Source: Thaumasiovibrio subtropicus (GTDB lineage Bacteria; Pseudomonadota; Gammaproteobacteria; Enterobacterales; Vibrionaceae). Taken from it: a stretch of DNA of 24,000 nt. The stretch covers positions 2,021,580 through 2,045,579 of the forward strand of contig NZ_AP023054.1 in assembly GCF_019703835.1 (NCBI RefSeq). The letters run 5' to 3'. A program made the position numbers and the translations under genes. The notes below the pieces were generated by a model. That model had not been told where the DNA came from. It saw nothing but the letters and a program-made list of their open reading frames with translations, and did no database searches. Shown in pieces: positions 2,827 to 19,554 of the stretch (its first letter is position 1; each line of letters opens with the position of its first letter).

Positions 2827-3190
2827 GAAATGTCGCTCAATTACATTTCATCCTCAAAGAAACGCCTCACATTTCCGTTTAAAAACCGAATAAAAAATTT
2901 GCGGTAAAAAACAAGTCAGAGAAAAGTCAAAACCAATCTAATATTCGAATAATCCCATAAAAAAAGACGAACCTCGACATAAAACACCAAGAATTCACAT
3001 ATTTCAGCACACAACCAGCAATCACATTGCCCAAGCCAATACTGTCAAGGTTGTATATTACTTCTGACTTGAATTTTAGGTTGCGTGGACAAGTCTCTTT
3101 TAAGGTCACGTTTTAGCAACGCTTGTGCTGTTTCTTGCTATGCGGTCGAAAATTCAAACTATGGATTATTCATCTAACGGAATAAAAGAC

Positions 3191-4900
3191 ATGTTGAAGA
3201 TAAAGTACCTCACAGCTCTTGTCGGGCTGAGCCTTGCATCCAATGCATTGGCAATGAACATCCAACCCGATCCAGACACACCGAATGGTTACTTGGTATC
3301 CAAAGCGGATGTCGCGGCAGCAGAAGCGGCCAAAACCTCGGATCCCATGTATGCGATTTGGGCCAAAGCACTCGAAACGGCACCAAACACGGTGGTCGAC
3401 GCCATTCGTCCCGGCCTCGCCTCTAACCCGGCCAACGTTGTACGTGCAGAGCGCGTGTTCCCAGAAACTGAATGGATTTTTCTGACGGACATGGCGGCCC
3501 CTGAATACACGTATACCAAGTTCTTACAAGCGATTGGTAAGTTCCCTGCATTTTGTGGTGACTACACCGATGGCCGCGATGCGGACGCAATTTGTAAACG
3601 CTCTATCGTGACCGCGTTCGCGCATTTCGCGCAGGAAACGGGGGGACATATTGCCGTCGATAACGTTTGGGATAACCCGAAAGGGCTGGAAGAGTGGCAA
3701 CAAGCGCTCGTGCACGTGCGTGAAATGGGTTGGTCTGAAGGTCAAGTCGGCTATACCACAGGTTGTGGCCAAAATGACTGGCAAAACAAACGCTGGCCGT
3801 GTGCAGATGGGCAAGGCTATTTTGGCCGCGGTGCCAAGCAACTTTCCTATCACTTTAACTACGGTGCCTTCTCTGAAGTCATGTACGATGGTGATGCAAC
3901 GGTCTTGTTGAACAACCCAGCACTCGTCGCTGATACCTGGTTAAATCTCGCTTCTGCTATCTGGTTCTTCCTTACTCCTCAAGCCCCTAAACCTGCCATG
4001 CTGCACGTGATTGACCGGACTTGGTCACCCTCACAACGGGAAATTGATGCCGGCATTGGATATGGCTTTGGTACCACCATTAATATCATCAATGGTGGTA
4101 TCGAGTGTGGCGAGCAGAACAAAGATAAAGGACAACCGGTTAACCGCATCCGCTACTGGGAAGGCCTATCAAGTTTCTACCAAATCCCGATTGAAGCCGA
4201 TGAGAAGAATACCTGCTGGCAGCAAACGCCCTACGGCAGTATCAATCTCGAAGGTGCGAAAGATGTCCTTTACACCAACTGGGATGGCGATTGGACCTAT
4301 CATGCAGATCGTCCGGGTGGTGTCTCCTTTGAGTGTAAACTTGTTGGCTACCAAACTGCCTACTCTGCGCTTGTCCCTGGCGACTACGAGAAGTGTGTGA
4401 CCAACTTCTATGAGTCACATGCTAACTGGCCTGCAGTCCGCGTCGTTGATACTTTGCCACCGGGTGATGGCGGCAATCCGGGCGGTGATCCTCAGAACCC
4501 AGCTTGGGATGCGACGGCGGTTTATACTGGCGGGGATACCGTTACCTATCAAAACGCTATCTACCGCGCCAAATGGTGGACGCAAGGTAATATTCCGAGC
4601 GATGGTGGACCTTGGGAATTTGTTGAAAATACCACTCCCACCGATCCACCAGTGACTGAGCCACCCGTCACAGAACCGCCTGTGACCGAACCACCTGTAA
4701 CAGAGCCTCCGGTCACTGAGCCACCCGTGACTGAACCACCTGCAACCGATGCCATTGTTTGGCAAGCCGGTGTAACAAAAGCGGCAGATGGCGACAAGGT
4801 AACGCATAATGGCAAATGCTTTGTCGCTAAAAACAGCCCGGGCGTTTGGGAAACACCAACCCAATCAAACTGGTTCTGGGATGAGGTTGCTTGTCAGTAG
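3191..4900 (+). CDS. Secreted GH19 chitinase with two C-terminal CBM5/12-like chitin-binding modules
   Basis: GH19 hallmark [10 protein letters not shown] and the surrounding catalytic-domain pattern. First C-terminal module [38 protein letters not shown]. Second module [34 protein letters not shown]. Signal peptide [21 protein letters not shown] begins at the ATG at 3191. The track start (GTG 3125) has no RBS, so the start is uncertain (3125/3161/3191). Confidence 0.9.
4646..4750 (+). repeat. 15-bp coding tandem repeat: (PPVTE)x6 plus a degenerate PPATD linker
   Basis: Units: ccaccagtgactgag / ccacccgtcacagaa / ccgcctgtgaccgaa / ccacctgtaacagag / cctccggtcactgag / ccacccgtgactgaa / ccacctgcaaccgat. 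It sits between the two chitin-binding modules. Confidence 0.95.
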
Positions 4901-4919
4901 AACACATGCATAACAACAG

Positions 4920-4950
4920 AGGGGATGCTTCTCTGCATCCCCTTTCTTTT
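4920..4950 (+). terminator. Rho-independent terminator of the chitinase gene
   Basis: Stem AGGGGATGC (4920-4928) / GCATCCCCT (4935-4943), loop TTCTCT, then TTCTTTT. Confidence 0.8.
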
Positions 4951-4999: not shown

Positions 5000-6760
5000 T
5001 TAATACACGTCGCGCACATAACGCTTCTGTTTCTTAAGCTTGCTCACGTACTCGATTGCCTCATCAGATGACATTTCACCATGTGTTTCGATCACTTGAT
5101 GCAAGGCCTTATCCACATCTTTCGCCATGTAGTAAGCATCGCCACAAACGAAGAAGTAACCACCACGCTCCAACCACGCGAACAGTTCAGCACCCGCTTC
5201 AATCATCTTATCCTGAACATAAATCTTCTCCGCCTGATCGCGCGAAAAAGCGAGGTCTAAGCGAGTTAACACCCCCTTCTCTTGCAGTGCTTCGAGTTCC
5301 TCACGATAGATAAAGTCAGTAGCACTGTTGCGGTCACCAAAGATTAACCAATTATCGCCCGGCGATGCTTGTACCTCACGCTCTTCAAGGAAAGAACGGA
5401 ACGGTGCAATTCCCGTACCCGGACCGACCATAATCATAGGTGCGTTGTCATCTTCCGGCACAGCAAAGTTCTTATTCGGAGCAAAATAGCACGGTACCGT
5501 GTCGCCTTCATCGACGAGGTCGGCTAACCAAGTCGAGCAGGTGCCATGGTACTCACGATCGTCGCGTGCATAGCGAACACTACCAATCGTTAAATGCACC
5601 TCATCTTCATGTTTATTCAGGCTCGAAGAGATAGAATAAGCCCGTGGCGCTATCGGCTTCAGGAGCGAGAGAATCTCAGCCAGAGACAAGGTGACACCCG
5701 GATACTGTCGTAGCAAATCAAGAATGTCTTTCCCCCACAGATAATCGTTCAGTGCGCTGGTATCTTCATTACCTAATAAGGTAATCAGATGGTGATCACT
5801 GGCGCTTTCCGCGAGGGCTTTCACAAACTCTTTTGACGGTGTGCGGATATCTAAATACTGGGTGAAGATCTCTCGTAGGCTATGGTTTTCTCCATTCCAT
5901 GACGGCTTCTCTTCACCACTAAAATTAAAGTGCTCAAGGAAAGCTTGCACAAGGGCTGGCTGATTCTGAGGAATCACATTCAATGCATCCCCTGCTTTAT
6001 AGAACTCACCACTGCCTTCCAAAGAAATTTCATAGTGAACAATCTCTTTACTCGATCCCGGCTGGTTCAAAACGCGCTTATGCTTGAGCTTCGCAAGCAG
6101 TGGCTGCTTACGACTGTACTTAGATTTCGCCTTTGGGGCGCTGCCCCCCGATGCCGTCGCTGCCTCACCATCATCGCCCTTGTCAGCGATGCCCGGCAAC
6201 GTAGCTATCATCCAATCTTCTGCAGGTTGCTCGAAATCGATATCGCAATCAACGCGCGGGGTGATACGGGTTGCCCCCAATGCTTCTAATCGTTGATCCC
6301 ACTCTTTACCTGCAAGACAGAACTCATCGTAGCTTGTGTCTCCCAGCGCCAACACTGAAAAGAAAGTGCCATCGAGTTTAGGCGCGTTGTCAGACGACAT
6401 GGTTTGCCACAATGTCTCTGCATTATCTGGATGCTCACCTTCACCATAGGTACTCGTCACAATCAGCACGCGCGACGATTTCACAAAGATTTGTGCATCG
6501 ACATCGTCCATATCATGCACAGTCGCCACCATGCCATATTCTTTCGCTTTTTCAGCCGTATCATAAGCAACACTCTCAGCATTGCCGGTTTGCGATCCAT
6601 ACAAAATCGTTAACGCCTTAACCTGTGGCTTAGTCTCAGCATGTACGACCGACTCTTCTTTCACTAACAGGCGCGAGTGTAGCCCCGAAAAAAAGCCTGC
6701 AAGCCATGTTTTTTGATCGTCGTTAAACGGAATATCTTGTGGCAAATGAGGTACTTTCAT
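5000..6760 (-). CDS. CysJ-like diflavin reductase (flavodoxin-like FMN domain plus FAD/NADPH ferredoxin-reductase-type domain)
   Basis: FMN motifs ILYGSQTGNAESVA, LIVTSTYGEGEHPDNA and FSVLALGDTSYDEFC. FAD/NADPH motifs RAYSISSS, GTCSTWL, MVGPGTGIAPFRSF, YVQDKM, FFVCGD and a C-terminal RYVRDVY. The N-terminus DDQKTWLAGFFSGL resembles the CysJ N-terminal segment. The ATG at 6760 has AGGAAG 5 nt upstream. It lies 30 bp downstream of the gltB-like stop on the same strand. Confidence 0.9.
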   Translation of the reverse strand: MKVPHLPQDIPFNDDQKTWLAGFFSGLHSRLLVKEESVVHAETKPQVKALTILYGSQTGNAESVAYDTAEKAKEYGMVATVHDMDDVDAQIFVKSSRVLIVTSTYGEGEHPDNAETLWQTMSSDNAPKLDGTFFSVLALGDTSYDEFCLAGKEWDQRLEALGATRITPRVDCDIDFEQPAEDWMIATLPGIADKGDDGEAATASGGSAPKAKSKYSRKQPLLAKLKHKRVLNQPGSSKEIVHYEISLEGSGEFYKAGDALNVIPQNQPALVQAFLEHFNFSGEEKPSWNGENHSLREIFTQYLDIRTPSKEFVKALAESASDHHLITLLGNEDTSALNDYLWGKDILDLLRQYPGVTLSLAEILSLLKPIAPRAYSISSSLNKHEDEVHLTIGSVRYARDDREYHGTCSTWLADLVDEGDTVPCYFAPNKNFAVPEDDNAPMIMVGPGTGIAPFRSFLEEREVQASPGDNWLIFGDRNSATDFIYREELEALQEKGVLTRLDLAFSRDQAEKIYVQDKMIEAGAELFAWLERGGYFFVCGDAYYMAKDVDKALHQVIETHGEMSSDEAIEYVSKLKKQKRYVRDVY

Positions 6761-6790
6761 TGTTCTTCCTATCTCTTATTCTTGGCCATC

Positions 6791-9700
6791 CTAGGCGCTT
6801 TGGGCTTTTGCAGTTTGCTGACTCGCAGCCTGCGCTTTCTCTTGCTCAATCTCTTCCCGGATCACATCGGCAAAGGTATGGCAATACAGTGTCGCCATAC
6901 GTTGAGCAAGCGGCTCAATCTGTTGTAGCTGTTTCTGGATCTCTTGCTCACGCGCAATGATCCAAACGGATGTCCCTCGCGAATGGGTATCAGTCACATC
7001 GCGACGTGCTAGCGAAGTTTTGTAATCAACAACACGTTTGTGGGCGAGCAGTACAGACAACTCCTCATCACGATAGTTAGAGACCGCCTCCTTCACGTCT
7101 TTCAACAACGTATCAAGTAGCTTCTTGTCACGAAGTTCAAAGAGACGTTTCACTAAGCGCGACTGTTGTACTTCACATTCACTTTGCGAGGAAACAAGTT
7201 GATGCGCGCGGTGTAATACACCACTTTGCGTCAGCAAATCGAAGATCAGCACCGTGTCCATATCGCCATATTGCGGACTCAAGCCATCGGATAAGGCCTC
7301 GCCACTTTCATAGGCAAGGTGGACACTTTCAATCAAACGATTCGCTTCACCGGCAATCAACTCTTCTAGCATTTTTTTGCGTGAGTGCGTTTTAAGAATA
7401 CTGTCAGGATGCTGGCTCTGAGTGAGCGCGAGCGGGAACACCAGCGTGAATAGCGTGCGGCTTGTAGCCCAATCATCAAGCAGTGCTTTGGCTGTCGGTG
7501 ACTGTGTGAAACGGACGTGCTCTTCAAGGTGCCATTTTAGCGCCTGCTCATAGCCTTCATTGTGTTCGATCAAAGGTAACGCCGTGACAGAATCTTCACT
7601 GCAACGCGCAGCAAAACTACCATCGACATCATATTGATACGCCACGCCACCAGACATACCGTTACCAAAGCCTTTACCATAATCACCTAAGTTGATCACG
7701 CTGCCGTTCGTCATGTATTCGCAACAGAAATCACCGACACCTTCGACAACTGCCACTGCGCCAGAGTTACGCACTGCAAAGCGGTCACCCGCTTCACCTT
7801 GGACAAATATCTGACCACCGGTTGCCCCAAACAGCGCAAAGTTACCAATCAGGACATTCTTACCTGTCTCTAGCGCGCCGCCACCCGGCGAACGCACGAC
7901 GATATGACCGCCACTGGATCCTTTGCCGACCCCATCATTACAGACACCCGTGTGTTCCATAATGATGCCGGAGTTATTGAATGCGCCATAACTTTGACCT
8001 GCGCTACCATGGGTTCTGACCTTAACAGACTCAGGTGCAAGGAAACGTCGACCATTGGCGGACGTAAAGATTGAAGGATGCGACTGAGCGTTGACGCATA
8101 CATCGCCCGCTTCACCTTTTCGACCTTGGGTCGCGTAGCCGTTGCCGTAATTTAAGAAACGCTCGACATCGATGGAGAGTTGCCCACCTGTCGATTTGTT
8201 ACGGTTATTGAGCTTCACGCTCTCAAGTTCAATTTGCGCCACTTCCGCGGTGAAGTAGGACTCGAAAAGCGCATCGATAAAGTGTTGATCTGGCGTGAAA
8301 TCGGCTTCTAGATAAACAGGTTTCGCGACCTTAACCAGATCAACCGGGCGTAACAGGCCTGTCACATCTAAACGGCCAACAATGCTGTGGTGATTGGCTA
8401 AATGCAGAAGTTCTGTTCGACCACGGATTTCACGTAAGCTGCAATAGCCTAGCGCGGCAAGGATTTCACGAACCTCATGGGCGACATTTAAGAAGTACTG
8501 CGCCAGCGCTCGGGGATCACCTTGATAGAGCTCTGGGTTGGTGGTCAATCCGGCAGGACACTTGACGTTACAGTTCTTCGCCATCACACATTTGAGCATC
8601 ATCAGGGCGGTTGTACCGAACTCGAAGGAATCGCCCCCCATAATGGCAGACTTAATTACATCCATGCCGGTTTGGTGTGCGTTTGAGCAGCGCAATACCA
8701 CTTTGTCGCGCAAGCCGTTTTCGCTCAACGCTTGATGTACTTCAGCAATCCCGATTTCTGCGGCGCGACCCGTATTTTTCAAACTGGTTACCGCGGCAGC
8801 CCCCGTTCCCCCGGTGTTACCCGCTACGTTAATGACATCGGCCCCGGCTTTCGCAACACCCACCGCAATCGTACCAATCCCTTCCGAAGAGACCAGTTTC
8901 ACAATCACTTTTACACGCGCCGCTTTTGCGTCATGGATCAACTGGCCCAAGTCTTCAATGGAGTAAGTATCATGATGAGGAGGGGGACTCACCAGCTCGA
9001 CGCCCGGCGTACCGCCACGTGCAGCAGCAATCTCTACCGTCACTTTCGGGGCGGGTAGCTGGCCACCCTCACCCGGTTTTGCCCCTTGGGCAATCTTAAT
9101 CTCAATCTCTTGAAGTTGTGGATCAGCAAGGTAGCCTACCCATACCCCAAAGCGCCCTGAAGCAAACTGCTTGATCTTACTCGATTTAATCGAGTTATAT
9201 CGGCTCGAGTGCTCGCCACCCTCACCACTGTTACTCATGGCGCCCGCAATGTTCGTGCCTTGCGCGACAGCAATATGTGCATTGGCATTCAACGCGCCGT
9301 GACTCATCGCGCCAGAGGCCAGTGTCGGTGTAATGAGGTGCGCAGGTTCAACCTCATTAATAGCAAGTGGTGTTTTTGCTTGGCGAACCTTAGATAAGAA
9401 AACTGCAAGACGTTCGTTCGCAAGGATGACGACCTTGTCGAACTCAATCGCTATGTCGGTGAGATGATCTTGCCAAACTCGCTCAATCGCCGCTTTGAGT
9501 AATTGCGGCTCACGCTGCGTGAGCGCCAACGCAAATCGGCTTTCCCCCAGCGCCTCTACTGTAATGCCCTGCCAAAGATAATTGACGTTACCTTCTCGAT
9601 GGAAACGGTCGAGTAACTTCACGACGTCATCAACACTGTTAGCCGCACTAAAATCGAGTGGCAACAGCAGAATGTCACGCAAGGCTGCCGGACGTGTCTC

Positions 9701-12310
9701 ACGCTCGCTGTACAAGTTGCTCGTAAAAGCGCGGTAGGATGGCGTAATAGCAAACTCATCAATCTGCTCTGGGGTACGTTTATCAAAGCCTTTATCTTTG
9801 TAATCGACGTCTTCACCCACAAACTCACTGGTTTTATCTAGGGCAATTTCCGCTTGGTCAGCACTGGCATCCGCATACTGTACCGACTCTTGCGTCATGT
9901 TAATGTATTCACGTACCGCCGTATTACCAAAACTGTGCCCCGCACCATCTTGACGTTCTTTGAACAAACCGAGGAGTGGGATCTGATTTTCTTCATTGAT
10001 TGCTAGGGCTTTGAAGTGCCATTTCGCCGCACTCCAAGCGAGATCATCAAACTGCGCACCACCCACCGGGGAACTTATGTTAGGGAAGTATGCTTTAAGG
10101 CCATCCGAATCTGAATCCAAAAAGTTGGACTCAAAGAACTCACCACCAATGTAACTTTCCGCAGTACAAAGACCAAACTTACCCATGGTCTTCATCAAGG
10201 ACTTTTCGACCGCTTTCTGGAAGTTATTTAGTCCTTTCTCAACCGTTTGGTTATTCGATAACGTTTGCGCCCGATGGTAAACAGAAAGTGGGCAAACCGC
10301 TGACGCACCAAAACCAAGTAAACAAGCAATGTCGTGGCTACTTGCCGCCTGCCCCGTGAGATAGACCAAGCTGGTATTAAAACGAAGGCCTTTCTGAATT
10401 AAGCGTTGGTTTAATGCGGCGACGGTCAAGATGGCAGGCAACGCCGCGTACTCTTGGCTAATTTGCTTATCACTGACTACCACGATCCCAACGCGACGAC
10501 GTGCAGCATCTTCAACCTGATCGCACAGGGCAGCAATTGCCTCTTCAACACGAACAGCATTGTCTTCACGGCTGTTAAGCGTCGGTTTAAACAAGGCATC
10601 GTAAGTTTCCACGCCGATCTGTGTTTGCGTGAATATCTGCTCTAACTGTTGTGGCTGCAAAATGGGTGATTGCAGTACTAACTGCACACTGTCCCGAGGA
10701 CTAAAGTTGGGTTTGGCCCCCAGAGCAACGCGTAAAGTCATACCATCTGACTCACGTAAGGAATCCAGTGGCGGGTTGGTGACCTGAGCAAATCGCTGAC
10801 TGAAGTATTTCGACATGCCGCCTTCTTCATCAGTCAGTACATTCGGCGCGAGGCCAAAACCCATTGCTGAGATTTTTTCAGCGGCATTCTCAATCATGGG
10901 GTCTAAAAAGAACTTAAAGCTCTCTTGGTTCAAAGAGTAAGCCACATGACGGCTATAGGTTGAGAACTGGGTGTTATCTTGAATCTTTTCGATACCAACA
11001 GGTTCGATATCATCAAGCGTAATGCGCGCAGAAGCCAACAAGCCTTTATAATCACGCGCCTTGGCTAGGGTTTCTAGGATTTCATTGGTTTCATAGCTGC
11101 GGCCTGTTGCGTGATCGAAGTAGATCATGCCCCCCGCCTGAATACGACCGTAGCGTGTCACCGACTCTGGTGGAAAATCTATCTGTCCGGATTCGCTCAT
11201 CACCGCGAGGTAGCGTTCTGTCTCTACACTGCGCAACGGACGCAGCCCCAAGCGGTCGAGACGCGCCCCCACTTTCTGACCATCAGAGAAGATCAATGCT
11301 GCCGGGCCATCATTTTTTTCTTCCGATAAGCTGAAGTACTCCAACATGGCACGCACATCATCAGACATCGATGGATCGTTTTCCCATGCAGGTGGCATCA
11401 TCGCCAACACAGCGGTGACAATGTCCATCTCATCTTCAACCACACGACGCGCTAAGGTCTGATCCAAACGGGCTGAATCAGATTGCCCCTTTGGAAAGAT
11501 CACCTTTTTGTGTTGCTGGCGCGCGATAGCATCTTCGCTTAAACGGTTTTTCTTATCCGTATTTAACTCACCATTGTGCGCCATACGACGAAATGGCTGC
11601 GCCATCATCGTGGCCGGTGCGGTATTAGTCGAAAAACGCGTATGGAAGAAAAGCGTGGTCACTTTATGTTCTGGGTGCGATAAGTCGGCAAAAAATGGCA
11701 CCACTTCACCCGAATTCAAACGCCCTTTATACACCTGTGTTTTGGAGCTCATTGAAAGGGGGTAAAACCCTTCTAAATCACCATCAGTAAACCCGGTTGA
11801 CTCCAATTCGGAGAGAGCAAGGTTAATGGCATTTTCAAACTGTACTGCATCTGCGTAGGCATCACCGCGAAGAAAGACAACCTGATGGATGGTCTGCTGC
11901 GCTTGTTGCGATGCTTCATTCACAGCATCGAGATTGACAGGCACTTCACGCCATTGGTCAATCTCGAATTTAAATGCGGCGAACGTGCTTTCAATAAGCT
12001 GCTTAGTTTTGTCCGTTTGACTCGCATCAAAAGGAAAGAAGAAGTTGGCTACCCCGAAGTCGCCCTTTTCAAGAGTGGGCTTGGCCGTTAAAAAGCGGTA
12101 GAAGTTGACCGAAAGATCGATATTGACGCCAGCACCATCGCCAATACCTTCGGCGTTCATGCCGCCACGGTGTGGAATAGTGCATAAAGCTTCATGAGAT
12201 AGTTGCAGTAGTTCGTGAGTTTGCTCACCGGTTTTATCCGTGATGAAACCCACTCCACAACTCGAGTGCTCATGCTCGCGATCATACAGCGAGCGATAAT
12301 TCTGATTCAT
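6791..12310 (-). CDS. gltB: Glutamate synthase large (alpha) subunit homolog, atypically long (about 1840 aa), with an internal insertion and a 210-aa C-terminal extension
   Basis: All four GltS-alpha domains are present. Ntn amidotransferase: SS-CGVGFITDK...PHRGG. A central domain follows. FMN domain: KIAQGAKPGEGGQLP, SPPPHHDTYSIEDL, GADVINVAGNTGGTGAA, and a Cys triad KCVMAKNCNVKCPAG. GXGXG domain: GSAGQSYGAF, NDGVGKGSSGG, GATGGQIFVQGEAGDRFAVRNSG. The likely start is the ATG at 12310 (MNQNYRSLYDREHEHSS|C) with AAGGAA 8 nt upstream. The track ORF extends to 12400. Confidence 0.9.
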   Translation of the reverse strand: MNQNYRSLYDREHEHSSCGVGFITDKTGEQTHELLQLSHEALCTIPHRGGMNAEGIGDGAGVNIDLSVNFYRFLTAKPTLEKGDFGVANFFFPFDASQTDKTKQLIESTFAAFKFEIDQWREVPVNLDAVNEASQQAQQTIHQVVFLRGDAYADAVQFENAINLALSELESTGFTDGDLEGFYPLSMSSKTQVYKGRLNSGEVVPFFADLSHPEHKVTTLFFHTRFSTNTAPATMMAQPFRRMAHNGELNTDKKNRLSEDAIARQQHKKVIFPKGQSDSARLDQTLARRVVEDEMDIVTAVLAMMPPAWENDPSMSDDVRAMLEYFSLSEEKNDGPAALIFSDGQKVGARLDRLGLRPLRSVETERYLAVMSESGQIDFPPESVTRYGRIQAGGMIYFDHATGRSYETNEILETLAKARDYKGLLASARITLDDIEPVGIEKIQDNTQFSTYSRHVAYSLNQESFKFFLDPMIENAAEKISAMGFGLAPNVLTDEEGGMSKYFSQRFAQVTNPPLDSLRESDGMTLRVALGAKPNFSPRDSVQLVLQSPILQPQQLEQIFTQTQIGVETYDALFKPTLNSREDNAVRVEEAIAALCDQVEDAARRRVGIVVVSDKQISQEYAALPAILTVAALNQRLIQKGLRFNTSLVYLTGQAASSHDIACLLGFGASAVCPLSVYHRAQTLSNNQTVEKGLNNFQKAVEKSLMKTMGKFGLCTAESYIGGEFFESNFLDSDSDGLKAYFPNISSPVGGAQFDDLAWSAAKWHFKALAINEENQIPLLGLFKERQDGAGHSFGNTAVREYINMTQESVQYADASADQAEIALDKTSEFVGEDVDYKDKGFDKRTPEQIDEFAITPSYRAFTSNLYSERETRPAALRDILLLPLDFSAANSVDDVVKLLDRFHREGNVNYLWQGITVEALGESRFALALTQREPQLLKAAIERVWQDHLTDIAIEFDKVVILANERLAVFLSKVRQAKTPLAINEVEPAHLITPTLASGAMSHGALNANAHIAVAQGTNIAGAMSNSGEGGEHSSRYNSIKSSKIKQFASGRFGVWVGYLADPQLQEIEIKIAQGAKPGEGGQLPAPKVTVEIAAARGGTPGVELVSPPPHHDTYSIEDLGQLIHDAKAARVKVIVKLVSSEGIGTIAVGVAKAGADVINVAGNTGGTGAAAVTSLKNTGRAAEIGIAEVHQALSENGLRDKVVLRCSNAHQTGMDVIKSAIMGGDSFEFGTTALMMLKCVMAKNCNVKCPAGLTTNPELYQGDPRALAQYFLNVAHEVREILAALGYCSLREIRGRTELLHLANHHSIVGRLDVTGLLRPVDLVKVAKPVYLEADFTPDQHFIDALFESYFTAEVAQIELESVKLNNRNKSTGGQLSIDVERFLNYGNGYATQGRKGEAGDVCVNAQSHPSIFTSANGRRFLAPESVKVRTHGSAGQSYGAFNNSGIIMEHTGVCNDGVGKGSSGGHIVVRSPGGGALETGKNVLIGNFALFGATGGQIFVQGEAGDRFAVRNSGAVAVVEGVGDFCCEYMTNGSVINLGDYGKGFGNGMSGGVAYQYDVDGSFAARCSEDSVTALPLIEHNEGYEQALKWHLEEHVRFTQSPTAKALLDDWATSRTLFTLVFPLALTQSQHPDSILKTHSRKKMLEELIAGEANRLIESVHLAYESGEALSDGLSPQYGDMDTVLIFDLLTQSGVLHRAHQLVSSQSECEVQQSRLVKRLFELRDKKLLDTLLKDVKEAVSNYRDEELSVLLAHKRVVDYKTSLARRDVTDTHSRGTSVWIIAREQEIQKQLQQIEPLAQRMATLYCHTFADVIREEIEQEKAQAASQQTAKAQSA

Positions 12311-12434
12311 TGGATCGTTTCCTTGATTGCTTGCAGCGCAAGGGCTACAGGTCCCTTTGGCATGTATCACTACAGTGCCGAAGCCTTTCGCTTTGCTCAC
12401 ACAACAAAGATCTTCCTGACCTTGTTACGCAAAT

Positions 12435-12455
12435 ATGAATGATAACAATTATCAT
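12435..12455. promoter_or_regulatory. Fur-box-like palindrome upstream of the gltB-like/cysJ-like operon
   Basis: ATGATAA-CAA-TTATCAT is a perfect 7-3-7 inverted repeat at 12439-12455. By hand alignment, 12435-12453 matches the 19-bp consensus GATAATGATAATCATTATC at 14/19. It lies about 125-145 bp upstream of the 12310 start. On the minus strand it overlaps a possible -10 (TTGCTT-16 nt-ATAATT). Confidence 0.5.
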
Positions 12456-12640
12456 GAGCAATAAAGATAAGCAAGTTTTCTGTGATTTAGATCGTCTTTT
12501 GTTTACAAGTTGATCACAAAACAACCAAGAATAAAAAGTCGATAAAAGGGAATAATTAGTAGGAAAGTGGGAGGTACATCAAAGGGGGCCAATCGTGGTG
12601 TCATAGCGAATAGCAGTGCAATACAATGCAACCCTTCAAG

Positions 12641-12693
12641 AAGGCAAACAAAAACACTTCAACAACATTGCATCAAAGCATGTTGTTGAAGTG
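12641..12693 (-). terminator. Orphan terminator-like hairpin in the intergenic region (minus-strand orientation)
   Basis: Perfect 14-bp stem CACTTCAACAACAT (12655-12668) / ATGTTGTTGAAGTG (12680-12693) with an 11-nt loop. On the minus strand it is followed by TTTTGTTTGCCTT. No annotated minus-strand gene ends here. Confidence 0.45.
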
Positions 12694-12902
12694 TCGACAG
12701 TTTGTTACCTGTTTGTCTCTCGCGTGGCAATGCATAAATGGGCATAATGCTAACGTAAATACCAAAAACATCCACAATACACACCTCGCATCACACATTA
12801 AGCAAATAAACATAATTCAAGTCAGTCATGCCGATAATCTATACTTATGCAATCAGACTACCTCAAGATGTAGATCAGTTAGAATAGGTTGGTAACCCTT
12901 CA

Positions 12903-13739
12903 ATGAGCACGCTTTTAGACATCTGTGAAACATTGTTTTTACCTAATGACTGCGACATCAAGCCAACAACGCCAAGTTTGGAGAAAACAGGCCTGCAAAG
13001 TCATGCCGTAGCGCACGTCTCTTTATCTCCACTGTCTAAAAATGCGCAATTTTCTGCCCTCCTCTCGGAGTTGAACACCTTGGGTTTTGACCAATGCCTG
13101 TTTACTGCCGTGCCCACTTACGCGACGAAAGTAAAAGCAAAACCACATTTTTACACAAACTTCGATGCCGATTGGATGGCCTACTACATTGATAAGCACT
13201 ATCACCTTAACGACAAAGCCCTGCAACACTGCCTAGCCCAGCCTGACACCCCGTTAATATGGCCTTCCAACAAAATGCTCAATGGCTATAACGCGAAAGA
13301 GAGAATTGTACGCTTGGAAGCTGAAAGCGCCGGCCTTGCTGTCGGGACAACCATTCCCTGTCAACTTCCCGGTGGGCTCGTCAGCACGTTCAGCCTTAGC
13401 TTTGATGGGACAGCCGAGCAATTCAAGGCTCAGTTTCATCAACATGAAAACATGCTAAAAACCATCGCACATGCCACCAGTCACGCCTTACTCGATGCAA
13501 ATCCACGCCTTTTTACCCAGCCATTTAGCACCATTCTCTCTCCTCGAGAGAAAGATACATTGCTGTGGTTAAGCGAAGGATTTACCTATCAGCAAATCGC
13601 GCAAAAGCTCGGCGTTGGCGAAAGCACCGTGCGCAAACATGTTAGTCAGATTCTGCGTAAATTGAATGCGCGTAACACCGCCCAAGCGTGTGCGATGGCC
13701 ATCCGCTGGCAACTCATCGATACCGGACTGATACGGTAG
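12903..13739 (+). CDS. LuxR-family transcriptional regulator: N-terminal autoinducer-binding-like domain plus C-terminal LuxR/FixJ HTH ('solo', no luxI in window)
   Basis: C-terminus LSPREKDTLLWLSEGFTYQQIAQKLGVGESTVRKHVSQILRKLNARNTAQ is a canonical LuxR-type HTH. The N-terminal region DADWMAYYIDKHYHLNDKALQHC...PLIW has the W/Y/D/W spacing of TraR/LuxR ligand-pocket residues (W57, Y61, D70, W85 equivalents). The RBS is weak, so the start is uncertain. Confidence 0.85.
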   Translation: MSTLLDICETLFLPNDCDIKPTTPSLEKTGLQSHAVAHVSLSPLSKNAQFSALLSELNTLGFDQCLFTAVPTYATKVKAKPHFYTNFDADWMAYYIDKHYHLNDKALQHCLAQPDTPLIWPSNKMLNGYNAKERIVRLEAESAGLAVGTTIPCQLPGGLVSTFSLSFDGTAEQFKAQFHQHENMLKTIAHATSHALLDANPRLFTQPFSTILSPREKDTLLWLSEGFTYQQIAQKLGVGESTVRKHVSQILRKLNARNTAQACAMAIRWQLIDTGLIR

Positions 13740-15602: not shown

Positions 15603-16436
15603 CTAATCAGATACGTGACTGACGCTGTCGTCTGGCGCCCTGTTTTGCTGCTCGAGTAACGCGAGCATCTTCGCCATTTTTTCATCTTGGTCTGATAAAC
15701 GCTGGTTGAGCTCAGCGACTTGCCCTTCCAGTTTGCGGTTGTTGTCGATTGCCATCTCATCAACGAACACCGCTGTCGCGATCGATAGACCAAGAAAACC
15801 ACCGACAAACAAAACAAACATAAAGAACAGGCGTATTAACCACGCATATTGCATTCCATCCGCAATGGCTTCATCCGGAATCTCATTCCAGTTCTCGATA
15901 AAGAAGACACTGAAAATGGTATAGAGTGATTGGATCGGATCACCAAAGTTCTCAGGAAGCAGGTGGGCAAAAAAGGCATTTCCAAACAGGGCGAATATCA
16001 GCATCATCATGAACAACATAACAAAAATTGCCGTTGTTGCTTTTAGCGCCAGCGCGATGTTGGTATACACGGTTTCAGCATGCGGTACAAACTTAAGCAA
16101 CCTCATCACCTTCAATAGACGAGTCACACGGAGAAAACCAATGTTAATCACAAAGAAGTACGGTAAGGCCACAGCGAGAAAACCAATCACCACAATCGCA
16201 AAATCAAAGACATTACTCTTTTGAGAAAAGTACGTCCTCGCGCCTTTCAACTGCATTCGAACAATGACTTCCGCCATAAAGTAACAAGACAATGCCCACA
16301 CCGCACCGTCAATCAGTAATCCAAATCGACCATGCACCTGTGGAAATGCATCAATAAAAATAAGTGCAACATAAACAAGAATTCCAATCCCTGCCAACTT
16401 CTCGTTAGCCAACCACTCTAATTTCTTCAATACCAT
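15603..16436 (-). CDS. Bacterial voltage-gated cation channel of the BacNaV (NaChBac-like) family
   Basis: 277 aa with six hydrophobic segments. S4 has positive charges at every third residue (LRVTRLLKVMRLLKF). Pore loop LYTIFSVFFIENWNEIPD aligns to the TLESW filter region. C-terminal coiled-coil-like tail EGQVAELNQRLSDQDEKMAKMLALLEQQ. Confidence 0.8.
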   Translation of the reverse strand: MVLKKLEWLANEKLAGIGILVYVALIFIDAFPQVHGRFGLLIDGAVWALSCYFMAEVIVRMQLKGARTYFSQKSNVFDFAIVVIGFLAVALPYFFVINIGFLRVTRLLKVMRLLKFVPHAETVYTNIALALKATTAIFVMLFMMMLIFALFGNAFFAHLLPENFGDPIQSLYTIFSVFFIENWNEIPDEAIADGMQYAWLIRLFFMFVLFVGGFLGLSIATAVFVDEMAIDNNRKLEGQVAELNQRLSDQDEKMAKMLALLEQQNRAPDDSVSHVSD

Positions 16437-17787: not shown

Positions 17788-19554
17788 ATGAAAAAACGCA
17801 TTTTTTGGAGTGCCACCGCACTCTGTATAGCCGCACTTAGCGGCCCTTCGTCGTTGGCACAAAACAGTCCGCACGCTGCCCCCGCGTGGCAGTATGTGGA
17901 AGCCTTTTCTGTAGAGCCTCTTGCAATTGAGTCGGCACTCGACCATATCATCAAGAGTAATGGCACCTCACCCAGCTTTGATGATCTGATGTCGATTTCT
18001 AATCAGGTTACAGAATCCCATATTAAGGATACGTACTTCGTCTTAGCGCTCTTTAGTGCGGCAGTCTCTCAACAAGAGTCAAAAGCCATTGCGGCTTTGG
18101 CTCACTATCAGCCAGAAGCCACCTACATGGACAATCTGTCTGAGTTACATATTGAAGAATTGGTTTTATCCGCCAGCTATAGTTGGCTAGTGAATAACCG
18201 CGTCTTTACCGTACCTACCAGCATGATGAGAACCATGCCGTCTTTAATTGCAGAAAGCACGCCCACCTGGGGATCCAACAGAGATGGTTATTTCAATATC
18301 GCCACACCCGAAGATTGGCAAGGGTTTAACAGCGACACATATCAAACATGGCGAACACTGCTTGATGACATCGAAAGCCCAGCGAAAGATCTTTATCACG
18401 GCTCGATTCGTCAGGCGCGATTTAAACAAGAGCGCATTTACCACGCGTTATTAACCATGGCACCTGAGCACCTTAAGCGCGAATATGCCACGCATTTCGA
18501 AGCACAAGCCGACCTCCCTGTCAGTCAGTCAAGGCTCGATTGGATGAGCCTTTGGCAATATCACGGCGCTTATGAGTTTCATAAAGTCGAAGCCTATCGA
18601 AAAGCAAAAACAGCACTGGTGCAGTCGCTTACGCCACAACTTGCGCAAATTCATAACATCGCGTCCAATGAAGCCCGCACCTTGGCGGATACTTTCATTC
18701 ATTTGATGGAGTCTCGGTTTATATTTCACCCCCGTCACGAAATCCAATACAACGCGATGGTGGATTTAATCGAAGCGCGTGGTTGGGTCGGTGTGGTCAA
18801 CACCCCTGACGTGTTTGATGAATATCAGCGCATTGAGCAGTTAAAATTCTTGGGCGGTTACTTACTCATCAATGCCTATCAAGCCTCTGAGGTCGATATT
18901 CCTTCACCTATGGCGATTGCCACCGCGGTGCAAACCTCAACCGAGCCAACAAGCAGCGCCGCTGCCAGCACCCAACCTGATACACAAATGGCGCAAAGTA
19001 CACTCCCGCCCGTACCTTACCACTATGATGTCAAAGCCTACCTAAAGTGGCTAACTAACAATCACGCCGATATTGCGGCACAAGAAATCATTAATATGGC
19101 GGTGACACTCGGTGGCTCCGAATACCAATTAATAGACGAGCTTAAGACTCTACCCAGCCAATGGGGCACTTTTAATAAAACCCCCCTTATGTATGCCGCA
19201 CAATATAATCATCTACCCGCGGTTGAATACTTGGTAACGCACTACCCGCAACTCGCCACCGCGACCACCACGGCGAACAACTTGCTGGAAGAGGACACAA
19301 TTTACCAATACTACGCTTGGGGCTATGAGCCGCCAAAGATAGCCAATCGTTCTGTGATTACCTATGGATTTGAAAACGGTAGTCTCGATATGATCGAGTG
19401 GTTGCAACAACATGTCCCGCCTACCGTTCAATCTCAGTCGGACAGTGCTGGCCGTAGCGCAAAAGATTATCTACAACTCAATGACCGCTTAAGCGATGCA
19501 CAACGGGACAGCATCATTTTTCCAACCACGCCAGCCTCTCACAAAGTGCAATAA
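17788..19554 (+). CDS. Secreted/periplasmic hypothetical protein with C-terminal ankyrin-like repeats
   Basis: Signal peptide MKKRIFWSATALCIAALSGPSSLA|QN. S/T/A/P-rich linker TAVQTSTEPTSSAAASTQPDTQ. ANK-like motifs NKTPLMYAAQYNHLPAVEYLVTHYP and NRSVITYGFENGSLDMIEWLQQHV. The N-terminal ~370 aa were not recognised. Confidence 0.65.
   Translation: MKKRIFWSATALCIAALSGPSSLAQNSPHAAPAWQYVEAFSVEPLAIESALDHIIKSNGTSPSFDDLMSISNQVTESHIKDTYFVLALFSAAVSQQESKAIAALAHYQPEATYMDNLSELHIEELVLSASYSWLVNNRVFTVPTSMMRTMPSLIAESTPTWGSNRDGYFNIATPEDWQGFNSDTYQTWRTLLDDIESPAKDLYHGSIRQARFKQERIYHALLTMAPEHLKREYATHFEAQADLPVSQSRLDWMSLWQYHGAYEFHKVEAYRKAKTALVQSLTPQLAQIHNIASNEARTLADTFIHLMESRFIFHPRHEIQYNAMVDLIEARGWVGVVNTPDVFDEYQRIEQLKFLGGYLLINAYQASEVDIPSPMAIATAVQTSTEPTSSAAASTQPDTQMAQSTLPPVPYHYDVKAYLKWLTNNHADIAAQEIINMAVTLGGSEYQLIDELKTLPSQWGTFNKTPLMYAAQYNHLPAVEYLVTHYPQLATATTTANNLLEEDTIYQYYAWGYEPPKIANRSVITYGFENGSLDMIEWLQQHVPPTVQSQSDSAGRSAKDYLQLNDRLSDAQRDSIIFPTTPASHKVQ

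Follow-up and report, generated by a model that had tools for sequence, protein, structure and literature searches.

The window analysed here, a stretch of 24,000 nucleotides from Thaumasiovibrio subtropicus (NZ_AP023054.1, positions 2,021,580 to 2,045,579), contains a two-gene operon in which a long alpha-type gene of glutamate synthase (GltS or GOGAT) is followed by the gene of a CysJ-like NADPH diflavin reductase. We propose that the two genes probably encode the components of an NADPH-dependent glutamate synthase in which the CysJ-type diflavin reductase replaces the usual small subunit GltD, and which in this bacterium acts as a Fur-repressed low-iron isoenzyme. The evidence leans, by a narrower degree, towards an undescribed class of glutamate synthase, in which the diflavin reductase, fused to its partner in a Lentisphaeraceae-type lineage, docks on a new helical domain, works without the clusters of GltD and is derepressed via Fur in marine Vibrionaceae. 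The domain content, the conserved catalytic residues, the operon, the gene fusion, the clade-specific residue changes and the Fur-like site described below are observations; complex formation, the electron path, GOGAT activity and regulation by iron are inferred. The first-pass annotation had suggested that the flavin mononucleotide (FMN) domain of the diflavin reductase could take the role of ferredoxin or GltD; the adjacency across lineages, the fusion, the separate clade of the reductases, their altered binding surface and a remodelled cluster loop all support that suggestion.

The large gene lies on the minus strand at 6791-12310, as taken from the list of open reading frames (ORFs) and the translation, with its stop codon at 6791-6793, and encodes a protein of 1839 aa. 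The mechanically called ORF is opened by a GTG at 12400 (6791-12400); because the homologues and the identical NCBI protein (P0001) begin at the ATG at 12310 (MNQNYRSLYD...), we place the start there. P0001, a Thaumasiovibrio subtropicus entry of 1839 aa named "glutamate synthase-related protein", shows 100% identity to the window GltS, and the reductase product is likewise 100% identical to an NCBI protein of the same species. The reductase gene (586 aa, 5000-6760, minus strand, assigned by Pfam) follows after an intergenic spacer of exactly 30 nt (6761-6790, minus strand), which holds the Shine-Dalgarno sequence AGGAAG 5 nt before the reductase ATG. A terminator-like hairpin with a T-rich tail is situated 57 nt past the reductase stop (4920-4943, minus strand; one site found versus 0.2 expected). 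Hence, the first-pass annotation was right in describing a complete GltS-alpha homologue with Cys1, a cysteine triad and GXGXG domain, followed 30 nt downstream on the same strand by a 586-aa protein with flavodoxin and flavin adenine dinucleotide (FAD)/NADPH domains and its own ribosome-binding site. Its claim that the window lacks a gltD-like gene was borne out as well: no Fer4_20 or Pyr_redox_2 domain was found by Pfam in the 15 other ORFs scanned, and tblastn of E. coli GltD and CysI versus the window gave no match at E <= 1e-3. The extent of 5000-12460 that it had given encloses both genes, but the part 12311-12460 is 5' leader and promoter and not coding. It had mentioned neither the location of both genes on the minus strand nor the additional length of the GltS, the CX5CX3C spacing of its cluster cysteines or the scores of the reductase below the CysJ equivalog cut-offs.

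The catalytic core of the long GltS is complete. Four GltS domains occur in canonical order (Pfam E 1e-53 to 1e-104; the last three far above the cut-offs), all encoded on the minus strand: the class-II (Ntn) glutamine amidotransferase domain GATase_2 (PF00310, E 1e-90; aa 18-422, 11045-12259), the central domain Glu_syn_central (PF04898, E 8e-76; aa 454-728, 10127-10951), the FMN/2-oxoglutarate or synthase domain Glu_synthase (PF01645, E 5e-104; aa 977-1289, 8444-9382) and the GXGXG beta-helix domain (PF01493, E 4e-53; aa 1417-1579, 7574-8062). The NCBIfam GltB equivalog NF008730 is passed narrowly (1079.2 bits versus a cut-off of 1047), with a match that is split into three separate stretches because of insertions in the GltS. 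The catalytic Cys1 corresponds to C18, which follows a propeptide of 17 aa; C18, R48 and N246-G247 do not differ from their counterparts in E. coli GltB. The same is true for the motifs of the synthase site, QGAKPGEGGQLP, R1098 and YSIEDL, with K1078 in QGAKPGEGG and E1119 in YSIEDL among the invariant residues. The residue spacing agrees with what we take to be the Synechocystis numbering (Cys1, Arg31, Lys972, Arg992, Glu1013). Identity in the FMN domain amounts to ~40%, and the nearest solved relatives by sequence are the NADPH-type structures 7mfm (827 bits) and 6s6s (811 bits), while the ferredoxin (Fd) type reaches 723 bits.

Beyond this core, the window GltS exceeds canonical GltB by ~350 aa, which are contributed by insertions at aa ~801-975 and 1385-1417 and a C-terminal extension at aa ~1627-1839, all of them defined by alignment to E. 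coli GltB and PDB chains. The first insertion (9386-9910, minus strand) is family-specific and exceeds E. coli GltB by ~140 aa. In the AlphaFold2 (AF2) model its aa ~885-980 form a small alpha/beta domain (window 9386-9670) with pLDDT, the per-residue model confidence, of ~90-95, and the rest of the insertion has low values. Foldseek finds for this alpha/beta domain a weak resemblance to the C-terminal domain of ArgR (E ~0.01, target TM 0.57), which is an arginine-binding and oligomerisation domain; all Foldseek matches of the insertion are weak (ArgR-C, PTS-EIIB-like; E 0.01-0.1) and should be taken as a lead only. The second insertion comprises 33 aa directly before the beta-helix (aa 1385-1417 of the minus-strand GltS product). 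The C-terminal extension (~210 aa; 6794-7432, minus strand) is predicted by AF2 as an all-helical domain of ten helices with pLDDT 90.9 and pTM 0.82, i.e. as a confident autonomous fold. It matched no fold among the solved PDB structures by Foldseek (best E 0.45), and its profile retrieved only 89 proteins from 1.84 billion cluster representatives. The six of these 89 that were domain-checked are GltS C-termini, and two of the six run on into a flavodoxin domain. Neither the insertion nor the C-terminal domain showed similarity to the N-terminal anchor (aa 1-90) of the E. coli sulfite reductase hemoprotein (SiRHP) in a profile comparison (probability 0.1%). The stretch from aa 975 to 1385, in which the loop specific for Fd-GltS presumably resides, contains no insertion when compared with E. 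coli GltB.

The cluster-binding loop is remodelled, too. It reads C1241-X5-C1247-X3-C1251-P (CVMAKNCNVKCP; 8558-8590, minus strand) and is in the alignment one residue shorter than the canonical CX5CX4C. The three cysteines C1241, C1247 and C1251 align with the cluster cysteines of E. coli GltB, and a deletion of 5 aa follows directly after the loop. The CX5CX3CP form was found in all 85 long-family sequences of the fetched loci and also in every protein from Actinobacteria, Planctomycetota, Verrucomicrobiota and Lentisphaerae that has the extension, and CX5CX4C is kept in six canonical GltB proteins, namely that of E. coli and five encoded by co-resident gltB' genes. As a side observation, P0277 (1704 aa), a divergent member of the family, seems to carry a shorter version of the insertion.

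These additions raise the question whether the large protein might be a GltS-like amidotransferase/reductase whose substrate is a different 2-oxo acid or imine and whose electrons come from the diflavin reductase. The cautious NCBI name "glutamate synthase-related protein", the narrow pass of the GltB equivalog in three stretches, the two extra domains without assigned role together with the altered cluster loop, and the frequent coexistence with canonical gltBD would all fit such an enzyme. We nevertheless regard it as improbable, given that the glutaminase residues and those of the 2-oxoglutarate/FMN site (QGAKPGEGGQLP, R1098, YSIEDL) are kept, that the FMN domain shows the level of identity mentioned above, and that no biosynthetic-cluster genes are conserved across lineages in the neighbourhood. 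An NADPH-dependent glutamate synthase remains the preferred assignment. Its chemistry and its alpha-type catalytic core would be the same as in the known enzymes, and the electron-input module and the accessory domains would be new.

The partner protein is built as a diflavin reductase. Pfam assigns a flavodoxin domain (Flavodoxin_1, PF00258; aa 52-176, 6233-6607), a FAD domain (FAD_binding_1, PF00667; aa 216-411, 5528-6115) and an NADPH domain (NAD_binding_1, PF00175; aa 444-550, 5111-5431), all on the minus strand, so that the Pfam/TIGRFAM searches advised for both proteins in the first-pass annotation returned a GltB equivalog and the three diflavin domains. The protein shares the fused FMN plus FAD/NADPH architecture, with connecting domain, of the diflavin superfamily, which includes cytochrome P450 reductase (CPR), the sulfite reductase flavoprotein (SiRFP or CysJ), methionine synthase reductase (MSR), nitric oxide synthase (NOS) and P450 BM3. 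It carries an N-terminal motif WLAGFFSGL, ends with DVY and keeps the motif SRDQ for the 2'-phosphate of NADPH. Its alignment to E. coli CysJ runs end to end with few gaps at 37% identity, and identity to its orthologues in other orders is ~60%. The best NCBIfam match is cysJ, and both CysJ equivalog cut-offs are missed (TIGR01931, 607.8 versus 668.15; NF008197, 491.5 versus 838).

More specific information comes from the surface by which CysJ holds its partner. Those residues of the flavoprotein that bind the hemoprotein are known from a cryo-EM structure of the SiRFP-SiRHP dimer, and in E. coli CysJ the exchange F496D abolishes hemoprotein binding and V500D weakens it 300-fold (PMC11947256). 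Among the reductases of the clade linked to GltS, 105 of 120 carry Asp or Glu at position 500, as do eight of eight members checked separately, other phyla included. R250, Q503 and V506 are replaced as well, F496 is kept as F or Y, and H258, T404 and Y498, which have a structural role, are unchanged. With regard to the residues critical for the SiRFP octamer, Tyr39 is changed to Phe, Phe40 is kept, Gln22 falls into a deletion and Gln47 is not conserved. The aromatic pair Tyr39/Phe40 contributes to octamer formation of SiRFP. By its separate clade and its altered hemoprotein-binding surface, the reductase is, as far as sequence can tell, not a subunit of sulfite reductase.

The gene neighbourhood agrees with this. 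With the insertion as probe, a collection of genomes, one for each species, was scanned by pattern and by tblastn. This gave 228 matching stretches, of which 80 were fetched; together with three from a protein look-up they form a set of 83 loci, 77 of them with enough downstream sequence for evaluation. The reductase is the next gene downstream on the same strand in 69 of the 77 evaluable loci, and none of the 83 contains cysI. The same adjacency was found in all of 12 further contexts from other lineages (Actinobacteria-like, Lentisphaerae, marine), which include a high-GC actinobacterium-like contig, Gordonia crocea, a metagenome-assembled genome (MAG) of Pseudomonadota, JGI contigs and two further metagenome contigs, plus one pair on a TARA ocean scaffold and one in public run data assembled by Logan, the last two divergent and full-length. 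The conservation of the gene pair across genomes, which the first-pass annotation had proposed to check, is therewith established. The two partners diverge in step across orders (59-62% identity for GltS, 53-62% for the reductase), and their hit lists share contigs. The flanks differ by lineage: glnA-ntrB-ntrC in Methylophaga frappieri, violacein genes in Pseudoalteromonas, a gene for an UbiH-type monooxygenase in Methylococcales, and DUF1499 and NlpE genes in Vibrio. The flank census revealed neither a conserved third gene nor an enrichment of iron or nitrogen genes, only lineage-specific synteny. Judged from the sequenced loci, the adjacency is not a matter of chance.

In addition to the operons, two single-ORF fusions of GltS and reductase were found, P0256 in a Lentisphaeraceae MAG and P0330 in an unrelated long-read metagenome that was put together by a different assembler. 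They are 62% identical and share the order GXGXG domain, C-terminal helical domain, the CysJ-type N-terminal motif LPxxPEN..QxxWLNGYFNGL and flavodoxin domain, with an identical junction. Since both assemblies show an in-frame junction of conserved sequence, we accept the fusion as real for the Lentisphaeraceae-type lineage. The metagenome scan yielded no further fused genes; two extra loci were obtained, both ordinary unfused pairs.

Some members of the family deviate in length or arrangement. The short forms P0381 and P0414 (~1015-1035 aa) were rejected as true variants, as they are contig-end truncations. Among the short forms, only Gordonia crocea (L089, BJOU01000001.1; genes 8001-11111 and 11116-12987) encodes a truly N-terminally truncated GltS of 1036 aa that consists of the FMN domain, beta-helix and C-terminal helical domain, without the amidotransferase and central domains. 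It is followed by the diflavin reductase and then by a HemS/ChuX-like gene, and a second diflavin reductase gene is found 1.6 kb upstream. This truncated GltS may represent an ammonia-dependent or otherwise altered variant, or the remnant of a rearrangement. Two divergent pairs, L094 and L095 (P0277, P0283), both have bacA directly upstream; the genes overlap by 56 nt in L094, and one of the two pairs lies on the TARA ocean scaffold beside a Na+-NQR operon and carB.

Several loci contain a second GOGAT-type system. A complete canonical gltB'-gltD' is encoded beside the pair in nine Vibrio-group loci (L010-L016, L018, L019), and also in four or more loci of Methylococcales, two others showing partial traces (L021, L023-L025, L052, L061). 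The products of the neighbouring genes are 44% (gltB') and 35% (gltD') identical to those of E. coli, and the loop is of the CX5CX4C type. A gltD just beyond the locus, which the first-pass annotation had regarded as a possible objection to its proposal, is indeed found upstream in some Vibrio and Methylococcales genomes, yet it is paired with its own gltB. Wherever the sequence next to such a gltD can be read, a canonical gltB of its own precedes it, and we therefore regard this gltD as part of a second complete enzyme and not as the missing subunit of the long GltS. Hence, in those genomes the long enzyme supplements the canonical one instead of replacing it. That two GOGAT-type systems cluster speaks for a related function, and a link to nitrogen assimilation is also seen in Methylophaga frappieri, where the operon follows glnA-ntrB-ntrC.

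With these data, an obvious objection can be weighed, namely that the partner is a usual flavoprotein of sulfite reductase or a general reductase, that its place beside the GltS gene is functionally meaningless, and that the long GltS is fed by ferredoxin, flavodoxin or a distant GltD. The best NCBIfam match of the reductase is cysJ, many database records carry the name "sulfite reductase subunit alpha", and gltD adjoins the pair in some genomes. But the pair stays together across phyla with unrelated flanks and is fused in one lineage; the two missed CysJ cut-offs, the lack of cysI at all 83 loci and the replaced hemoprotein-binding residues, a natural V500D/E included, do not suit a partner of sulfite reductase; the neighbouring gltD belongs to its own gltB wherever this can be read; and the loop insertion of the Fd-GltS type is absent relative to E. 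coli. We therefore consider this objection to be very improbable, and keep the diflavin reductase as the dedicated electron-input partner of the long GltS as our preferred assignment.

The promoter region of the operon suggests a connection to iron. About 130 nt upstream of the ATG, at 12440-12454 on the minus strand, a Fur-box-like 7-1-7 palindrome TGATAATTGTTATCA matches the consensus TGATAATnATTATCA at 13 of 14 positions, and it lies in a promoter block that is conserved among Vibrionaceae. Among 649 control intergenic chunks, one reached 13/14 positions of the Fur palindrome. The loci of the V. penaeicida group show 14/14 matches ~130 nt upstream, Marinifaba has 14/14 at ~270 nt upstream, and in V. 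nigripulchritudo the same palindrome is located ~300 nt upstream. In Marinomonas and two MAGs, 14/19 matches to the Fur 19-mer were found at the corresponding place. A sigma-70 scan called no minus-strand promoter upstream of the large gene. The canonical gltB is an iron-sparing target of the RyhB type in Vibrio cholerae and a predicted target in Aliivibrio (PMC5511505). Moreover, the canonical alpha-beta protomer contains one [3Fe-4S] and two [4Fe-4S] clusters (2021 review of Fe-S flavoenzymes), and the pair described here is predicted to need 3 Fe per protomer versus 11 in the canonical enzyme. On the basis of the Fur-like palindrome, the RyhB-type sparing of gltB and the lower iron need, we propose with moderate confidence that the pair would be a Fur-derepressed low-iron isoenzyme in T. 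subtropicus and its closest Vibrio relatives. Single iron-related neighbours were observed, which are not enriched overall: besides the HemS/ChuX-like gene in Gordonia, this is a gene for a siderophore-interacting protein in the Pseudomonadota MAG (L090, 4970-5974; domains FAD_binding_9 and SIP), located right after the pair on the opposite strand.

Between promoter and start codon lies a 5' leader of ~95 nt (12311-12402, minus strand; Vibrionaceae alignment) in which the motif A(A)GGA occurs twice, one copy lying at the ribosome-binding site. The leader is conserved almost base for base in the Vibrionaceae loci L006-L020, with the arrangement GGCTTCGGCACTGTAGTGATACATGCCAAAGGAACC..GCAG-loop-CTGCAAGCAATCAAGGAAATGATCGAATG, in which a stem encloses a variable loop. 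Rfam returned no family for the whole window, nor for the leader at permissive E-values, and RNAalifold on the Vibrionaceae leader gave one small hairpin without compensatory changes. The leader could be a site of post-transcriptional control, e.g. of the CsrA type, or a new cis-regulatory RNA.

Taken together, the following mechanism can be proposed. NADPH would reduce the FAD in the FNR-like domain of the reductase, from which electrons would pass singly to the FMN of the flavodoxin-like domain. This domain would then swing onto the remodelled surface around the alpha-type Fe-S cluster, where docking would most obviously involve the changed loop at the cluster and the new helical domain; the C-terminal helical domain is the likely docking platform for the reductase, and the insertion possibly contributes. 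The putative [3Fe-4S] cluster would in turn reduce the FMN of the synthase site, and this FMN would reduce 2-iminoglutarate, formed from 2-oxoglutarate and ammonia that is tunnelled from glutamine hydrolysis at Cys1, to glutamate. Published potentials are compatible with such a path, with ~-330 mV for the FMN semiquinone/hydroquinone couple of E. coli SiRFP and ~-280 mV for the [3Fe-4S] cluster of GltS. The operon is probably repressed by Fur and would serve under low iron, when the canonical Fe-S-rich enzyme is shut down.

Some of our observations weigh against this proposal. Eight of the 77 evaluable loci, all of them in Methylococcales MAGs, lack an adjacent reductase. Downstream ORFs were listed for six of these exceptions: five show no reductase in the available sequence, and two of the six carry apparent toxin-antitoxin, transposase or DNA-methyltransferase genes. 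In a seventh exception (L024) the canonical gltBD is inserted between the long gltS and the reductase. The fusion stems from one lineage and is documented by one contig of 1.9 kb and one error-prone long-read contig, that of P0330, which carries frameshifts outside the junction. The reference for Val500 in CysJ proteins is E. coli CysJ alone, and the loop is one residue shorter than in canonical GltB, so that the assignment of a [3Fe-4S] cluster is putative. Furthermore, nitrogen control is not evident, since a search upstream of 76 loci gave two weak matches to a sigma-54 promoter, which is about the background rate, and none in the window. With respect to iron, a strong Fur-like site is confined to the T. 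subtropicus/V. penaeicida/V. nigripulchritudo group and Marinifaba, the site is weaker elsewhere, and no such site was found in the Methylococcales loci. In the Vibrio loci with gltBD just upstream, only one half-site is well kept, and part of the palindrome may double as a -10-like element.

From the latter points it could be argued that the pair forms a working NADPH-GOGAT for which iron is irrelevant, and which serves oxidant tolerance by avoiding the low-potential [4Fe-4S] clusters of GltD, another nitrogen regime, or as the sole GOGAT of some genomes. The Methylococcales without Fur-like site, the weak sites in most other lineages, the flanks without enrichment of iron genes and the operon beside glnA-ntrBC in Methylophaga are in line with this view. 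Nevertheless, 13-14 of 14 palindrome positions in the window and its nearest relatives versus one of 649 controls, the iron-related neighbours in Gordonia and the Pseudomonadota MAG, and the documented iron-sparing repression of the canonical gltB in Vibrionaceae (PMC5511505) speak for a role of iron, and we consider an iron-independent function possible but unlikely. Hence, for T. subtropicus and its relatives we continue to favour a Fur-repressed low-iron isoenzyme.

The window contains some further features. A perfect hairpin (12654-12694) is located between the promoter region of the long gltS and the divergent small ORF and LuxR-type gene; its Rfam matches are spurious and microRNA-like. 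The LuxR-type regulator with an autoinducer-binding domain (12903-13739, plus strand) is encoded divergently from the operon and is not conserved beside the pair elsewhere. It may be a LuxR solo, because no luxI-type gene was found among the window ORFs scanned. Moreover, the window encodes a GH19 chitinase with a CBM5/12 module and a Pro/Thr-rich linker (3125-4900, plus strand), a single-domain Ion_trans protein of 277 aa of the bacterial voltage-gated channel type (15603-16436, minus strand) and an ankyrin-repeat protein of 588 aa (17788-19554, plus strand).

Nitrogen enters biomass through glutamate synthase, the classes of which have for decades been defined by the electron donor, namely GltD with NADPH, ferredoxin, or the fused NADH form. 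If the proposal is correct, a form driven by a diflavin reductase would add a further class, and the diflavin reductases would gain a new client beside P450s, heme oxygenase, methionine synthase, NOS and sulfite reductase. It would also provide a natural system for the docking of a flavodoxin-like domain at a [3Fe-4S] site. If the operon is regulated by iron, it would be a further case of iron sparing, comparable to the replacement of ferredoxin by flavodoxin, and a junction of nitrogen and iron metabolism in marine bacteria and methanotrophs. Moreover, the proteins are currently named "glutamate synthase-related protein", "diflavin oxidoreductase" or, misleadingly, "sulfite reductase subunit alpha" in the databases, and the last label, which should be corrected, inflates the capacity for sulfate assimilation that is inferred from genomes and metagenomes. 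According to the first-pass annotation, the pairing is not known to have been characterised, and our full-text literature search on GltS or GOGAT with a diflavin reductase likewise gave no publication on it. The only classes named in a 2021 review from a leading GltS laboratory are the NADPH (alpha-beta), ferredoxin, fused NADH and archaeal ones.

Compared with the NADPH-dependent GltBD enzymes of Azospirillum brasilense, B. subtilis (GltAB) and E. coli, the system described here is alike in its four domains, Cys1 and the residues of the 2-oxoglutarate/FMN site, and also in the presumed donor NADPH and the two-gene operon with the large subunit first. It differs in the partner, which in GltBD is GltD with FAD and two [4Fe-4S] clusters, whereas here it is a diflavin reductase with FMN and FAD and no iron, and this accounts for the predicted difference between 11 and 3 Fe per protomer. 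Furthermore, GltBD has the loop CX5CX4C, whereas here it is CX5CX3CP, accompanied by the insertions of ~140 aa and 33 aa and by a ~210-aa domain at the C-terminus. With the Fd-GltS enzymes (Synechocystis GlsF, plant Fd-GOGAT) it would share an alpha-type chain that is reduced in single-electron steps by a small module near the cluster. Under low iron, the classical substitute for ferredoxin is a flavodoxin-like domain. In contrast to the free donor of Fd-GltS, this module would here be tethered in an NADPH-linked reductase of the same operon, or fused; the loop specific for Fd-GltS is not seen relative to E. coli, and similarity is lower (723 bits) than to the NADPH type. The CysJI system (SiRFP/SiRHP) has the same reductase architecture, with N-terminal motif, flavodoxin domain, linker, FAD domain, NADPH domain and DVY end, and the same logic, which is here proposed, of electron flow from NADPH via FAD and FMN to a metal centre of the partner. 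Its partner is a siroheme hemoprotein, whereas here it would be a GltS, and the N-terminal segment of the reductase is shorter than in CysJ. Finally, the Lentisphaeraceae-type fusion resembles P450 BM3 and NOS in having the catalytic part N-terminal and the reductase part C-terminal. The acceptor in those enzymes is a heme enzyme, whereas here it would be an Fe-S/FMN amidotransferase, which in most lineages, including that of the window, is encoded as a separate protein next to its reductase.

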